Shown here piece by piece: positions 4,791 to 20,580 of a stretch of 24,124 nucleotides of DNA. The translations under genes were made by a program, and so were the position numbers. The first letter of the stretch is position 1, and each line of letters starts with the position of its first letter. Source of the stretch: a virus. Under the pieces are notes generated by a model. The model was not told the origin of the DNA and did not search any database. It saw only the letters and a list, made by a program, of their open reading frames with translations. The DNA lies in UHGV virus genome UHGV-0149432; one strand, 5' to 3'.

Positions 4791-4814
4791 AACCCCGCTT
4801 CGGCGGGTTTTTTT
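4791..4814 (+). terminator. Rho-independent terminator
   Basis: AACCCGC-ttcg-GCGGGTT stem-loop followed by TTTTTTT. Confidence 0.6.
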
Positions 4815-4887
4815 ACGCCTGGAATTTGTGTCTGCAGGTTAACTATTCGTGCTCTTAAATCGTTGATCATTCTGATTTATAGGTGTG

Positions 4888-4903
4888 CTGTATAAATATA
4901 CAG
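4888..4903 (+). promoter_or_regulatory. LexA (SOS) box
   Basis: CTGTATAAATATACAG matches the CTGT-N8-ACAG LexA operator consensus; located 20 nt upstream of the dinI-like start and overlapping an AT-rich -10-like element. Confidence 0.7.
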
Positions 4904-4923
4904 TTTTCGTGGTGGAGCCCATT

Positions 4924-5157
4924 ATGAAAATTGAATTAACCATTGATCGTACTAAGAAACTTCCTGATGGCGCAGTGCTAGCATTAGAAGCTGAACTGTT
5001 ACGCAGACTCAGTCAGAGCTATGAAGATGTGAAACTGACAGTTCGTCGCGCCGGAGCTGACGGCCTGAGTATTCTGGGGGGTGAAAAAGGGGATAAGCAG
5101 TGCATTGAGGAGATTCTCCAGGATACCTGGGAAAGCGCTGACGACTGGTTTTACTAA
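4924..5157 (+). CDS. dinI: DinI-family damage-inducible protein homolog
   Basis: 77-aa product MKIELTIDRTKKLPDGAVLALEAELLRRL...ILQDTWESADDWFY closely resembles DinI (C-terminal TWESADDWF motif); GGAG SD; LexA box upstream. Confidence 0.85.
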   Translation: MKIELTIDRTKKLPDGAVLALEAELLRRLSQSYEDVKLTVRRAGADGLSILGGEKGDKQCIEEILQDTWESADDWFY

Positions 5158-5186
5158 CATTGCGCTTGGGGCTGGCGCGCATTTTT
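5158..5186 (+). terminator. possible weak intrinsic terminator after the dinI-like gene
   Basis: TGCGC...GCGCA stem followed by TTTTT. Confidence 0.3.
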
Positions 5187-5273
5187 CAGAATACCGCAAT
5201 TTGCGTATCCCTTTGATGCTGCTGCCGACAATTTTTAACCGCGTCTGTATGTCGCTCGAAGGGAGAACAGAAT

Positions 5274-5522
5274 GTGAGTAATTCAGCTTTGCAAACGTCA
5301 GAAGATAACTGGTATGACATTGTAAGACGGTCTGACGGCTGCGTGGTGTTTAGCTTTCCTTCGTCGGGCAGGCATCTTATCTATCGCGTCAATGGCATGG
5401 TTTCCATGCGGCCTTTGCTGGATGATGAAGAAGTCTTTACTCCCAATGGCTTTATGCAATTTATTCGCCGTCTCGGCTACCGGGTAACGCCACCTTCTGA
5501 TAATATGAAATCAACGGTCTGA
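5274..5522 (+). CDS. hypothetical protein (82 aa)
   Basis: ORF with GTG start and AAGGGAGA SD-like sequence upstream; no recognisable motif. Confidence 0.4.
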   Translation: MSNSALQTSEDNWYDIVRRSDGCVVFSFPSSGRHLIYRVNGMVSMRPLLDDEEVFTPNGFMQFIRRLGYRVTPPSDNMKSTV

Positions 5523-5559
5523 ACAGCCGTTAACCTGCTGCGCCACGGAGTGAACAACC

Positions 5560-6159
5560 ATGGCGCAATTACATCTTATTAAGCAGTCGACCGGAATACT
5601 GATCCCCGCTACGCCGGAGACCAGTGATTTTCTGCAATCAAAATGCAAGCTCGGCTCCGTTCTGGTTGCCGACTTTAAGCTTGTCCGCAATCCGGCATTT
5701 CATCGCCGTTTCTTTGCGCTCCTGAATCTCGGGTTCGAATACTGGGAACCAACCGGCGGCGCTATTTCTTCGAATGAACGCAAACTCGTTAACGGTTATG
5801 CCAGATTCCTTGCCTCATACGGCGGCAATGAAAGCGCTCTGCTGGATGCTGCCGAGCAGTATCTGGAGCAGATCGCCAGTCGCCGTATCACGAACGGAAT
5901 CAGCCTGTGTAAATCCTTTGATGCATACCGGGCCTGGGTAACTGTTGAGGCCGGTCACTTTGACGCCATCCAGTTACCAGATGGCACGCTCCGCAAACAC
6001 CCTCGCAGCATCGCGTTCGCCAGTATGGACGAAACCGAATTCCAGCACCTCTATAAGGCCGCACTCGATGTCCTGTGGCGCTGGATCTTGTCCCGCACTT
6101 TCAACAGCAGGGAAGAGGCCGAAAATGCCGCCGCCCAGCTTATGAGCTTTGCGGGGTGA
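5560..6159 (+). CDS. conserved lambdoid nin-region protein (DUF1367-like, recalled from memory)
   Basis: 199-aa ORF, ATG with ACGGAG SD; lies immediately upstream of ninG as in many lambdoid prophages. Confidence 0.6.
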   Translation: MAQLHLIKQSTGILIPATPETSDFLQSKCKLGSVLVADFKLVRNPAFHRRFFALLNLGFEYWEPTGGAISSNERKLVNGYARFLASYGGNESALLDAAEQYLEQIASRRITNGISLCKSFDAYRAWVTVEAGHFDAIQLPDGTLRKHPRSIAFASMDETEFQHLYKAALDVLWRWILSRTFNSREEAENAAAQLMSFAG

Positions 6160-6365
6160 TGGCGATGAAGTATTCATATTTTCATCACACGGAATGCACC
6201 ACCGAGCAGGCAGAGCGCCTGATTGCCGATTATCAGTCTCGCGGCGTCAGAGCCCAAAAGAGCCTCAATCCTGATTTCCTGACCTGGACAGTCAGCGCGA
6301 AATTACAAGAATGCGAACGTCCGGCGCGGACGCCGAGAACCTTCCGACAAAAAGGATGGGGGTGA
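6159..6365 (+). CDS. hypothetical nin-region protein (68 aa)
   Basis: ATG at 6159 overlapping the stop of the upstream gene (TGATG); translationally coupled small ORF. Confidence 0.45.
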   Translation: MAMKYSYFHHTECTTEQAERLIADYQSRGVRAQKSLNPDFLTWTVSAKLQECERPARTPRTFRQKGWG

Positions 6366-6367
6366 TT

Positions 6368-18790: not shown

Positions 18791-18792
18791 CC

Positions 18793-19173
18793 ATGGCTGA
18801 CCCAATCACAGCGGCAGACGTGCAGGCGTTCCCCGGTGAATTGGGTTACTCCATTCCGGGCTCGCTGCTGGAGCCGATCCTCTGCGTAGTGAACAAGATT
18901 ATCCCATGCCTCGATGGCGCGGGGTATGACGAGTGCACCGCGAAGCTGATCCTGATGTACGCCGCCGCATTGATGGCTACGTCGTCCGGCGCGCGTCGCA
19001 TCAAATCGCAGGGCGCTCCGTCTGGCGCGTCCCGCTCGTTTGAATATGGCGACGACAGCATCAACTGGCTGCGCGACTCACTGGCGAAACTCGATACCAG
19101 CGGCTGCACCGGCGACCTGCCAATCAGCGCCGGGAGCAGCGTCGGCCTGTTCATGGTGGTCGGAGGCTGCTGA
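18793..19173 (+). CDS. putative head-tail connector (gp6-like adaptor)
   Basis: 126-aa ORF in the usual connector position after the capsid gene. Confidence 0.5.
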   Translation: MADPITAADVQAFPGELGYSIPGSLLEPILCVVNKIIPCLDGAGYDECTAKLILMYAAALMATSSGARRIKSQGAPSGASRSFEYGDDSINWLRDSLAKLDTSGCTGDLPISAGSSVGLFMVVGGC

Positions 19174-19346
19174 TGACGTACAAATCAGTTAAGCACGGGC
19201 TGCCGCGCTCTTTCACCCGCGTCTGGGTGATGACCGACACCGGGCGGGAGACGACTGGCCACGTGAAATCGGATGGCGAGTGGTTCATCAACTGCCCGCG
19301 CATCCGGGCGACCGGCGCGAAGGTGCTGCGCTGGAAGGAGGGCTGA
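19173..19346 (+). CDS. hypothetical small structural-module protein (57 aa)
   Basis: ATG overlapping upstream stop (TGATG); stop overlaps the next start (TGATG); translationally coupled. Confidence 0.35.
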   Translation: MTYKSVKHGLPRSFTRVWVMTDTGRETTGHVKSDGEWFINCPRIRATGAKVLRWKEG

Positions 19347-19687
19347 TGTCGAGCATTGCTTCGTGGAGCTATACCGCCACGGCGACCATCTGGCGCAAAC
19401 TGGAAGGCAATGACGAATACGGCGACCCGCTAGGCTATGCCGAACCTGAGCAAATCATCTGTGATTACGAGGGCGGACTCAGCAAGAAGCTAGCCAGCCT
19501 GGGCGCTGAAATCGTCGTGAAGAATACCGTCTGGACGGAGTTTGCGCTGGCGGCCGCTGGTGATTACCTGCTGATTGGGGTTTCGACTGAAGCAGACCCG
19601 GTTGTGGCCGGTGCCGACGAGGTGCGCCAGGTTATATCCGCTACGCCGACACGTTCGAACGCCTGGCGGATGATTACGCCATCCTGA
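19346..19687 (+). CDS. putative head-tail joining / head closure protein
   Basis: 113-aa ORF with AAGGAGG SD; position between connector and tail-completion genes. Confidence 0.45.
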   Translation: MSSIASWSYTATATIWRKLEGNDEYGDPLGYAEPEQIICDYEGGLSKKLASLGAEIVVKNTVWTEFALAAAGDYLLIGVSTEADPVVAGADEVRQVISATPTRSNAWRMITPS

Positions 19688-19733
19688 CGGGAGTATGATA
19701 GAGTCTTCTAAACCCACGCGTTGAGAGGAATTT

Positions 19734-19907
19734 ATGTCTGAAGTCAGCGGTTACAACACTGGTAATTTCACTCCAGAGTCAGCGGGAGTTGTTGCGGATA
19801 AGCTTAATGAAATTGCAGAGCTAATTCGTAATGATCCGTCTCTTCTCATTCAGTTGGAATGGAAAGAGTCAGAGGATTCAAAAGAAATCAGCATCATGTA
19901 TAAGTAG
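19734..19907 (+). CDS. hypothetical small acidic protein (57 aa), accessory insertion
   Basis: ATG with GAGAGG SD 5 nt upstream; AT-rich; followed by an intrinsic terminator; below the track size cutoff. Confidence 0.45.
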   Translation: MSEVSGYNTGNFTPESAGVVADKLNEIAELIRNDPSLLIQLEWKESEDSKEISIMYK

Positions 19908-19925
19908 CACAACGCATTCAGATAA

Positions 19926-19949
19926 GGTCGCTAAGGCGGCCTTTTTTAT
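19926..19949 (+). terminator. Rho-independent terminator
   Basis: GGTCGC-taag-GCGGCC stem followed by TTTTTT; near-identical to the 15784 element. Confidence 0.6.
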
Positions 19950-19963
19950 TGCCTGGAGAAAAA

Positions 19964-20332
19964 ATGGGCATCAAAGTGAAGGGCGTCAACTAGGCGAAGA
20001 GGCACCTGAACACTATTGTTGGTGATATACAGGGGAGAAAAGTCGTTCGTGCTATGCAATCTGCTTTGATTATAGGCGGAACGCAGGCGGCTCTGTATAC
20101 ACCAATTGATACTTCAACCCTCATAAACAGCCAATTCAGAGAGATTACGGTGAACGGAAATCGTGTTACTGGGCGCGTTGGATACACTGCTAACTACGCC
20201 GTTTATGTCCATGATCCGAATGTACCGCAGAACTTCCGCCGGGCAACGGCCAAGAAAGAATTTCTTACTAAAGGTTTCGAAGAAACCCGGCGACAGATAG
20301 ACGCTGCAATCGCCAAGGAAATGTCGTTATGA
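19964..20332 (+). pseudogene. HK97 gp10-like tail-completion protein with in-frame amber at codon 10
   Basis: ATG at 19964 gives MGIKVKGVN then TAG (19991-19993), then the same frame continues AKRHLNTIVGDIQGRKVVRA into the track ORF 20054-20332 (ALYTPIDTSTL...VGYTANYAVYVH); typical family N-terminus is split by the stop. Confidence 0.6.
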
Positions 20333-20555
20333 CTCCTCCAATGTACGAACGAGTACGTAATCGTCGCCCAGCAGCAGAAAAGGCATAGGAAATCATCAAT
20401 TATGTCGAACAGAACGACATTGCCGATGAGTGCCTTGGCCTGATTCAAAACCTCGGGAATATGCCAGCACCACTCCTGACTGAAGAGGGACGATTGGTCT
20501 TCCGACTTCAGTTCATGTGCGTTTACGGCGAATAGCCCCCATCACCAACCCATCA

Positions 20556-20580
20556 GGCTGCCATCCGGCGGCCTTTTTTA
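20556..20580 (+). terminator. Rho-independent terminator
   Basis: GGCTGCC-atcc-GGCGGCC stem (one G.U) followed by TTTTTT. Confidence 0.55.

Follow-up and report, generated by a model that had tools for sequence, protein, structure and literature searches.

Why a single prophage should carry several look-alike transcription terminators, and whether these mark genes that arrived by a common route, is the question raised by UHGV-0149432, a viral stretch of 24,124 nucleotides (nt) that was analysed as a whole and is called the window here; the plus strand is the strand as given and positions are those of the whole stretch. The window contains a defective lambdoid prophage of about 20.6 kb adjoining phoP. 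Its initial annotation had treated five plus-strand terminators as one family with a shared core, each behind a small accessory open reading frame (ORF) and ahead of a conserved phage gene, and had proposed that the cargo was acquired by a common mechanism or by recombination at a shared sequence. Numbering the five T1 to T5 from left to right, we think it probable, if by no means certain, that T3 and T4 are two copies of a circulating terminator-plus-linker block that caps cargo genes, stops RNA polymerase not modified by the antiterminator Q and serves as a patch for recombination. In the loci compared, the block is conserved while the sequence upstream of it is unrelated and of low G+C content (GC), insertion and terminator occur together, the junction to the downstream gene is fixed, and hairpin and cargo assort independently of each other.

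All five terminators are present where they had been placed, each as a canonical hairpin with a T-run. T1 consists of CCCGC-TTCG-GCGGG followed by T7 and ACGCC (4794-4819; predicted free energy, dG, -9.9), T2 of AAACCGCC-TCCG-GGCGGTTT followed by TTTATTGCC (10030-10058; dG -15.9), T3 of AGGGTCGC-TTCG-GCGGCCTT followed by TTTTATTGCC, that is T6 and ATTGCC (15782-15811; dG -14.0), T4 of AAGGTCGC-TAAG-GCGGCCTT followed by the same TTTTATTGCC with T6 and ATTGCC (19924-19953; dG -13.2), and T5 of AGGCTGCC-ATCC-GGCGGCCT followed by TTTTTATTTG with the tail ATTTGA (20555-20585; dG -15.0), all on the plus strand. Together with a further element at 7830 they have stems of 5-12 base pairs (bp), tetraloops and dG values of -9.9 to -18.7 kcal/mol, a run of six or seven T residues stands directly 3' of each stem, and T1 to T5 are predicted to be Rho-independent terminators of a decayed lambdoid prophage. 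The idea of one core common to all five stands for T3 and T4, which alone carry GGCGGCCTTTTTTATTGCC exactly, but T2 and T5 match it only with three mismatches and T1 has no match within three; at least four matches to this core were found in none of 100 shuffles. The near-identity over about 30 bp that had been noted between T3 and T4 is real, with 29 of 32 positions identical and an exact 19-mer common to both. We define the class I block by a GGTCGC arm that pairs with a GCGGCC arm, a G.U pair occupying the third position of the stem, and by T6 and ATTGCC after it. These features are found in T3 and T4 and not in T5, whose arm is GGCTGCC (class II) and whose tail is ATTTGA, nor in T2 and T1, which have other stems. 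The five elements are not one family: T3 and T4 form one class, T5 represents a second hairpin class, and T1 and T2 are two other common phage terminators.

The proposed placement between an accessory ORF on the 5' side and a conserved phage gene on the 3' side also holds for T3 and T4 only. T3 follows ORFs of 189 and 62 amino acids (aa) and its tail ends 26 nt before the ATG of a DUF2213 gene, while T4 follows a 57-aa ORF and its tail ends 10 nt before the ATG of a neck gene. T1, by contrast, stands between a 70-aa ORF assigned to phrog_4499 and a DinI-like accessory gene; no plus-strand ORF of at least 40 aa ends at T2, which sits in a low-GC block with minus-strand ORFs; and what lies upstream of T5 is the remnant of a conserved tail-terminator gene. 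Homology to relatives breaks at the terminators in the window, and the blocks upstream of T2, T3 and T4 have a GC of 40-42%, compared with about 55% in the core genes.

At T3 the cargo occupies the slot between the genes for a Mu-F-like minor head protein and the DUF2213 protein and comprises the 189-aa ORF (14937-15506) and the 62-aa ORF (15570-15758), both on the plus strand, in a segment with a GC of 0.396 (14876-15781) between flanks of 0.55. The longer ORF belongs to phrog_4350, a family of unknown function, and the shorter one has no match in Pfam, PHROGs, NCBIfam or PADLOC; in these four collections the cargo ORFs as a whole found no function and only two PHROG families, both of unknown function. 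Homology to relatives stops at 14853 and resumes at 15772, about 10 nt 5' of the hairpin, and the sequence upstream of this point differs. An Escherichia coli prophage (locus L002) has a homologue of T3 in the same place ahead of its DUF2213 gene, again with different sequence upstream. From the tail of T3 to the start codon runs the plus-strand linker TGAAATCTACCAATGAGGACCCCAGC (15812-15837), which natively serves the DUF2213-family head gene (15838-17034, plus strand) as leader and ribosome site; this gene is recognized through the annotation of relatives and through PF09979 for the cluster representatives.

The head module was matched in about 570 genomes, and the same slot was followed in 85 loci picked by the core gene and not by the terminator. 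Seven of these are empty, and in none of the seven is there a terminator, although the leader of 24-26 nt is kept (CTAATCATCCCATGAGGACACAGC-ATG, or a leader ending in ATCCCATGAGGACACAGC-ATG). The remaining 78 are filled with cargo of 41 clusters, among which the cargo of the window is a singleton type, and the terminator stands at the 3' end of the insert in 58 of the 78; in at least nine more filled slots it lies further upstream, ahead of an extra small ORF. The association between insertion and terminator has a nominal p of 2e-4. The distance from the terminator tail to the ATG of the DUF2213 gene is 24-26 nt where measured, 25 in most loci and 26 in the window. The hairpins at this slot are of many types, including those of T1 and T5 and T2-like ones, all with the tail T5-7 ATTGCC TGAAATCCACC; the identical hairpin AGGTCGCCACGGCGGCC is found with six cargo clusters and single cargo clusters are found with different hairpins. 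Hairpin type and cargo type assort independently, which fits exchange at a shared sequence.

The slot closed by T4 lies between the connector and neck genes. Its cargo in the window is the acidic 57-aa ORF (19734-19907, plus strand), in a segment with a GC of 0.419 (19688-19923) against 0.55 in the flanks; the plus-strand linker TGGAGAAAAA, with the ribosome site, lies directly 3' of the T4 tail and extends up to 19963. The ORF has no counterpart in L001, L002 and L248, where the connector and neck genes abut at this site with neither cargo nor terminator, and the best match of T4 in L002 is the T3-slot terminator of that prophage. Cargo of the 57-aa type is seen at the same slot in L465 and L485, an exact copy of the protein is present in 91 blocks of the assembly collection, and a distant homologue (36% identity, E=1e-6) fills a DUF2213-type slot in L069, where a class I terminator also lies 3' of it. 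The sample for the neck slot consisted of 80 loci fetched by core gene, together with the window, L002, L247 and L248. The slot is empty in 59 loci (IMG/VR), with a 2-nt spacer from the connector stop codon to the neck ATG and no terminator, and filled in 25, with inserts of 166-425 nt of which every one has a terminator (nominal Fisher p=6e-22). The inserts represent six cargo types, each a single plus-strand ORF of 35-96 aa, several of them membrane-spanning in look. All 25 end in hairpin-T6-ATTGCC-TGGAGA(A/C)A.CC-ATG, save for point changes in two copies (CTTGCC in L247 and a mutated 5' arm in L458), and this one tail follows hairpins of three types, GGTCGC..GCGGCC, CCTCGC..GCGGGG and CCTCGCC..GGCGAGG. 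The left junctions show no sequence conservation, and 13-46 nt separate the upstream stop codon from the start of the cargo ORF.

Because insertion and terminator occur together, relatives are empty at the same places, and hairpin and cargo assort independently, T3 and T4 can be said to cap low-GC cargo. For these two, empty relatives, low GC and the mixing of cargo with hairpins favour the initial suggestion of a common mechanism or of recombination at a shared sequence, whereas it applies to T1 and T2 only loosely and not to T5, which is vertically inherited between two core tail genes. A similar density of the motif throughout the host genome had been named as the result that would speak against a link with cargo. 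With complete E. coli genomes as a proxy for the true host, this is not what is found: 16 kb of the window hold four copies, two of them exact and two related, as against about one look-alike per 5-Mb E. coli chromosome.

The class I family extends well beyond this prophage. The 19-mer common to T3 and T4 occurs in at least 120 IMG/VR viral contigs, and in 84 non-redundant contexts aligned on it conservation reaches from -10 to +35 with a sharp drop at the 5' foot of the hairpin. The profile consists of an A-rich lead-in, an AGGTCGC arm, a variable loop segment of 3 nt, the 3' arm, T6, ATTGCC and a linker such as TGAAATCCACCAATGAGGAC; in the 84 contexts no conservation was seen further upstream of the lead-in. 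ORFs upstream of the 19-mer fall into 58 clusters with a median length of 98 aa, mostly without any family, and those downstream into 24 clusters, the largest being DUF2213 (28+18), portal (20), DUF6651 (15) and neck (4). By pairwise comparison, homology blocks end or begin at the terminator and identity rises there, from 68-85% on the left of the terminator and linker to 83-95% on the right. Salmonella phage ES18 carries a copy of T3 (NC_006949, 2082-2103; 92% over 48 nt) that was annotated as a putative terminator and lies after the small gene 3, of unknown function, between the large terminase and portal genes. Like T3, it follows a small gene inserted between core genes; unlike T3, it belongs to the slot between the large terminase gene (terL) and the portal gene, and a small ORF, gene 4, precedes the portal gene. 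Phage CobraSix has four copies, in the terL|portal slot, in the neck slot of T4, after a small post-Q gene before a transfer RNA (tRNA) gene, and in the leftward early operon, and related terminators occupy the T3 slot, the T5 slot and a position ahead of the tape-measure gene in Klebsiella phage ST101-KPC2phi6.1. Homogenization of the loops within a genome by gene conversion was considered and rejected, the loops differing among the copies in the window and in CobraSix.

Some further features of these loci were seen in passing. A class I terminator stands directly before a tRNA gene in CobraSix (L247, 44240-44345, tRNA-Arg) and in L004, L075, L076 and L089, and at these tRNA-adjacent copies the ATTGCC tail continues into TGTAGCTCAG. 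ORFs of 52-62 aa intervene between the terminator-linker and the core gene in L090, L099, L123 (gene 4 of ES18), L078, L085 and others; their types include a CxxC-rich one (MTEYWCCACGK) and one beginning MWTLKYD, and their 3' end repeats a motif made of a stop and a ribosome site, ...CA(A/T)T(G/A)A(C)GAGGAC..., which gives the impression of a leader duplicated to both sides of the insert. The DUF2213 head gene of L104 and its relatives has an N-terminal ADP-ribosyltransferase domain (PF03496, E=1e-17).

How could such a block have come to cap so many unrelated genes? According to the proposal that we favour, it would be carried by a gene pool of siphoviruses resembling ES18, CobraSix and the Klebsiella prophages, and would be made up of the A-rich lead-in, the hairpin GGTCGC-N3/4-GCGGCC with its fixed G.U pair, T6, ATTGCC and the ribosome site of the next gene. 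Its place would always be at the downstream border of a slot in which cargo separates two core virion genes, these slots being terL|portal, Mu-F|DUF2213, connector|neck, chaperone|tape measure and Q|tRNA-lysis. In a lysogen, the block would stop polymerase that had not been modified by Q at pR', whether it came from read-through or from the cargo, and the virion genes would stay silent. During lytic growth Q-modified polymerase would pass the block, since the late operon is of the Q-antiterminated type and its internal terminators should be read through at that stage. At the same time the 20-45 nt of the block could act as a right-end homology patch for phage recombinases of the Red/RecT type or for those of the host, with the left crossover placed in the upstream core gene or being illegitimate. 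Given such a patch, cargo could be swapped between phages and occasionally between slots, which would explain both the independent assortment and the homology blocks and identity steps that start at the terminator; it is from these patterns that we infer recombination at the shared sequence. A bolder version, in which the block is the portable 3' end of promoter-less cassettes that temperate enterobacterial phages trade among a few fixed late-operon slots by short-homology annealing of the Red-beta/RecT type, seems doubtful to us.

Several observations weigh against this proposal. Movement of cargo together with its terminator from one slot to another was looked for at the DNA level and none was found, cross-slot pairs sharing either the terminator or weak protein similarity only, and the only link between cargo of different slots is a protein pair with 36% identity. 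The exact run shared by T3 and T4 is 21 nt, which is below the 23-27 bp of exact pairing published as sufficient for Red-beta in work that ascribes phage mosaicism to Rad52-like recombinases (PMC3945230). The weakest link concerns transcription: a search for sigma-70-like promoters with at least 9 of 12 consensus positions gave none in front of the cargo ORFs of the window, although one may lie in the interior of the upstream gene, and the spacer at the neck slot is only 13-46 nt, which leaves the transcription to be stopped without an evident source. The steps in identity could reflect different constraint on the genes to either side rather than history. The loci are phylogenetically related, so that the association probabilities are nominal and the effective sample is the number of cargo types. 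Lastly, the 19-mer and the cores of T1 and T2 occur in many unrelated contexts and phyla, and similarity alone is no proof of descent.

This last point leads to convergence, an explanation that we regard as unlikely. Compact, strong terminators fill a small sequence space, defined by an A-tract, a G+C stem of 6-8 bp, a UUCG-type tetraloop and a U-tract extended by AUU; if they arise in it independently, their likeness would be uninformative on the acquisition of cargo. Exact copies of the 19-mer are present in at least 120 genomes from phyla far apart, where both the 5' arm and the context vary, and the exact 26-mer of T1 in 98 viral contigs and 84 distinct contexts, high-GC phages included. 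By a rough estimate, chance recurrences of a terminator of 19-26 nt would lie within about an order of magnitude of these counts. The terminator of tktA in E. coli K-12, AAAAGGTCGCTTCGGCGACCTTTTTTATTACC (L245, 1497-1529), is identical to T3 at 27 of 29 positions, and about 3,600 of the 5,426 complete E. coli genomes have such a look-alike, with a median of one per genome. Given the spread of the 19-mer across phyla and the tktA look-alike, copy number alone proves nothing, and we discarded the exact copy count as a proof of homology, since the 19-mer spans bacterial phyla and the information estimate allows many chance recurrences. The tktA terminator shares stem, UUCG loop, T6 and ATT with T3, but differs in its perfect stem (GCGACC for GCGGCC, without a G.U pair), in its tail ATTACC and in standing alone on the chromosome, behind a housekeeping gene. 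We regard it as a look-alike produced by striking convergence or as a possible source of the phage family, and not as a member of it.

Several features argue against convergence. The G.U pair is fixed at one stem position in phages, the 5' arm reading GGTC with G.U at that position in 83 of 103 viral instances as against 24 of 105 non-phage bacterial ones, while a perfectly complementary 5' arm is found in 1 of 103 viral and 22 of 105 non-phage bacterial instances, the bacterial arms being perfect or of other kinds. Of 128 distinct terminator-like sites in phage loci picked by core gene, 45 have ATTGCC after the T-run; in bacterial loci this tail is confined to sites selected for it and is seen at none of the others. 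In addition, conservation includes the linker even where the genes that follow are not homologous, and at the neck slot insertion and terminator go together without exception, with an identical tail on three different hairpins.

A second alternative, which strikes us as quite improbable for T3 and T4, is that the terminator is resident, an attenuator in the leader of the downstream core gene, and that cargo lands upstream of it by illegitimate recombination in which the terminator has no part. T5 behaves exactly so. Its 30-mer is found in 66 viral contigs, and all 68 instances share one context, about 19 nt 3' of the stop codon that ends the tail-terminator gene, with the major tail gene next; T5 and the 25 nt upstream of it are identical in L001 and L002. 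T5 is a vertically inherited internal terminator of the tail module and not a cargo boundary, and its hairpin also fills the T3 slot in L045, L064 and L553. In other phage groups there are about 20 instances of a terminator directly after a Mu-F-like gene with no cargo, and both the nearly fixed distance of 24-26 nt from terminator to ATG and the finding of one hairpin with six cargo types would suit a resident element. Against it stand the empty slots of the phage group to which the window belongs, where no terminator stands in any of the 59 empty neck slots or the 7 empty DUF2213 slots, so that the terminator either arrives with an insertion or persists only with one; moreover, different hairpins are found at the same position of the same slot.

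It has also to be asked whether the hairpins act on RNA rather than on polymerase, as 3'-end or processing elements that stabilize the message of the cargo or the upstream gene or set expression ratios along the late transcript. With no cargo promoter found, the cargo is in line with the late operon, read-through by Q-modified polymerase would leave a role in RNA stability, and the hairpin immediately precedes the ribosome site that serves the next gene; it is built like a canonical intrinsic terminator with a U-tract of 6-7 nt, however, and the annotators of ES18 named their copy a terminator, and we hold this explanation to be very improbable. A dedicated cassette system resembling integrons, in which an enzyme recognizing hairpins inserts promoter-less ORF-plus-hairpin cassettes at defined sites, shares with our loci the single promoter-less ORF, the 3' hairpin, the exact placement from stop to start and the constant right end, but is barely conceivable and was ruled out as enzyme-driven insertion, given that neither an integron integrase nor an HUH/Y1 enzyme was found in the window, whose only recombinase gene is that of a phage integrase, that the hairpin is a terminator of 7-8 bp (about 20 nt) without the architecture of attC sites of 57-141 nt, that the left junctions have no conserved sequence, and that precise placement is the outcome expected from selection alone.

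The proposal of a circulating block is confined to T3 and T4; T1 and T2 are other members of a common phage terminator repertoire and happen to be located at mosaic joints. T1 lies in the nin-type region behind a basic, Cys-rich ORF of 70 aa (4573-4785, plus strand; phrog_4499, of unknown function, E=5e-17) for which no match was obtained in Pfam, NCBIfam or PADLOC. Homology to SEN34 and mEp237 starts at 4839, 25 nt after T1, and the T1 hairpin caps cargo at the DUF2213 slot of other phages, for example in L565 and L562. The exact 26-mer of T2 is present in at least 120 viral contigs and many contexts, and with the 26-mers of both T1 and T2 a ribosome site and a start codon typically come next. 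Between the Rz gene and T2 lies a low-GC block (9534-10029; GC 0.36-0.47, and 0.417 over 9534-10386) that contains no plus-strand ORF of at least 40 aa, gives no family match in PHROGs, Pfam, NCBIfam or PADLOC, and includes a 77-aa ORF on the minus strand (9541-9774). Homology to ENT1/BHUENT3 starts at 10031, at the start of T2, and L002 has a 91% copy of T2 in a different upstream context; T2 is a mosaic boundary. Near T2, a 62-aa ORF (10114-10302) and a hydrophobic 29-aa ORF, MNLLATYSKTAITMGLLMVMAIKNRPEAV (10028-10117), lie on the minus strand, the latter overlapping the stop codon of the former and ending within the T2 hairpin; a promoter-like site is found at 10374-10346. A second, imperfect hairpin, ATCACCATG.GCAGACCCATCGTAATGGC (10053-10090), which folds within 74 nt with a dG of -26 and encodes part of the 29-aa ORF, recurs 3' of T2 in many phages with unrelated upstream sequence. 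The 29-aa ORF may be a small membrane peptide or a toxin-like gene in an antisense moron.

Whether the terminators could still be read through in this prophage depends on Q. The Q antiterminator gene (7082-7765, plus strand) matches PF06323 with profile positions 1-100 and 102-218 on two adjacent ORFs of the same frame, separated by a single in-frame stop codon at 7385-7387 (...HQKA*LLWSY...), and it is a pseudogene; late-gene expression is therefore probably dead and read-through probably no longer possible. A sequence scan gave a late-promoter-like site, TTGCAA-17-TATATT, at 7749-7777 on the plus strand. IsrJ is a small RNA (sRNA) of Salmonella. When the window was searched against Rfam (E<=1), T1 to T5 remained without a match and isrJ was the sole match above its gathering score, a 77-nt leader RNA at 7781-7857 on the plus strand that covers the full model (RF01393, 55.5 bits against a gathering score of 37, E=7e-8) and for which the Rfam label is 'Hfq-binding sRNA'. 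It ends in a sixth strong plus-strand terminator, absent from the initial list, with a 12-bp stem and T-run (7830-7857, the element extending to 7863; dG -18.7 kcal/mol, z -5.2). Judged by where it lies, isrJ would in this case be the short leader transcribed from pR' in a lambdoid prophage, and 7749-7857 would be the point at which Q acts. The window has the same parts as Q antitermination of the lambda type, namely Q gene, promoter-like site, isrJ-type leader and strong terminator, which would let polymerase read through T2 to T5; unlike in lambda, its Q gene carries an in-frame stop.

Other parts of the prophage are decayed as well. On its left is a gene for a PhoP-type response regulator of 224 aa (50-724, minus strand), of which an exact protein copy is found in 1,509 blocks of the assembly collection; the neighbour of this gene elsewhere is phoQ (in other assemblies) and, in uninterrupted genomes, purB, as in L688 where purB lies directly upstream without a prophage, and the attachment site is evidently between purB and phoP. 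The length of PhoP and the presence of isrJ would suit Salmonella as the host, though this is no more than a guess. The phage integrase with its arm-binding domain (795-2081, minus strand) is the only recombinase in the window. In the immunity/early region a 134-aa ORF (3535-3939, minus strand) has a TolA C-terminal domain (PF06519, E=9e-11) and may be a phage-encoded TolA mimic. No replication genes of the O/P or helicase type are recognizable at 2640-4573, between the repressor-like region and the nin-type genes (DinI-like, DUF1367 and NinG), which is a further sign of deletion. The late region runs from lysozyme, Rz, small and large terminase, portal and Mu-F-like minor head protein to DUF2213, major capsid, DUF7370, connectors, neck, tail-terminator and major tail gene. 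The neck or tail-completion gene (19964-20332, plus strand; phrog_5, tail completion or Neck1) is interrupted in frame by a TAG in codon 10 (19991-19993; MGIKVKGVN*AKRH), with the remaining frame intact; relatives start MGIKVRGVKQS, with VKQS where the window has VN*A, and the gene would be a pseudogene or an amber allele. About 175 nt of the tail-terminator gene, corresponding to L001 13428-13602, are deleted near 20360 (20332-20555), and only its 3' end is left ahead of T5. The core gene 3' of T5 encodes the major tail protein (20595-21404, plus strand; phrog_853, E=5e-81); homology to related phages ends within it at 21124, where the GC drops, no chaperone, tape-measure or distal tail gene is found 3' of it in the window, and the prophage appears truncated at about 21124-21404. 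From 21124 to 24124 there are minus-strand genes for a 566-aa protein without a family and a family-2 glycosyltransferase, possibly a gtr-type pair for O-antigen modification. A tRNA scan of the window found none. The closest sequenced relatives are the Enterobacter phages ENT1/BHUENT3 and Klebsiella and E. coli prophages, with about 80-88% identity over the head genes.

The nearest known concept is that of the moron, developed for HK97 and HK022 by Juhala et al. (2000) and summarized in two later papers (PMC3594210; PMC3029335). Morons carry their own terminators (PMC3594210; PMC3029335), which have been proposed to stop unmodified polymerase in the lysogen (PMC3594210), and in modular phage evolution crossovers have been proposed to take place at short boundary sequences that are conserved (PMC3029335, citing its references 21 and 22). 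The cassettes described here resemble morons in being extra DNA between adjacent genes of a syntenic late operon that is absent from close relatives (for the T3 slot, 7 empty loci and 41 cargo types), in a base composition unlike that of the flanks, in the factor-independent terminator at the end (T3, T4 and 25 of 25 filled neck slots) and in being tolerated since late transcription is antiterminated. They differ in that no promoter was found here of the kind by which a moron is expressed from the repressed prophage, most neck-slot cassettes having no room for one (13-46 nt), and in that the terminators of unrelated cargo share one block and a fixed junction to the next gene. To our knowledge, neither a shared block nor a fixed junction is part of the definition of a moron. 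Like boundary or linker sequences, the block is short, conserved between unrelated modules, located at gene boundaries and coincident with breaks in homology; unlike them, it is a predicted terminator plus a ribosome-site leader on one side of the cargo only, and its crossover role is one that we infer. As far as the window itself is concerned, the T3 and T4 cassettes are best described as moron-type insertions in a dead prophage, which is ordinary biology, whereas one terminator-linker block on unrelated cargo with a fixed downstream junction seems to add new details to the moron and boundary concepts. In a literature coverage that is incomplete, we found no paper describing the shared block and fixed junction, so that the pattern may already have been described, and none linking terminators to recombination breakpoints in phages.

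It is debated whether phages acquire accessory genes by illegitimate recombination followed by selection or by homologous exchange at short boundary sequences. The terminator family offers a well-sampled natural test case for this question, with few slots, dozens of unrelated cargo genes and a constant right but variable left junction, and it is carried by isolated phages, ES18 and CobraSix. If the block were indeed traded as the portable end of promoter-less cassettes, it would resemble integron cassettes but need no integrase, and would give a concrete example of the long-debated route to phage mosaicism through boundary sequences. For the annotation of this phage group, a simple rule follows: where a hairpin-T6-ATTGCC precedes a core virion gene, the gene on the upstream side of the hairpin can be marked as cargo.

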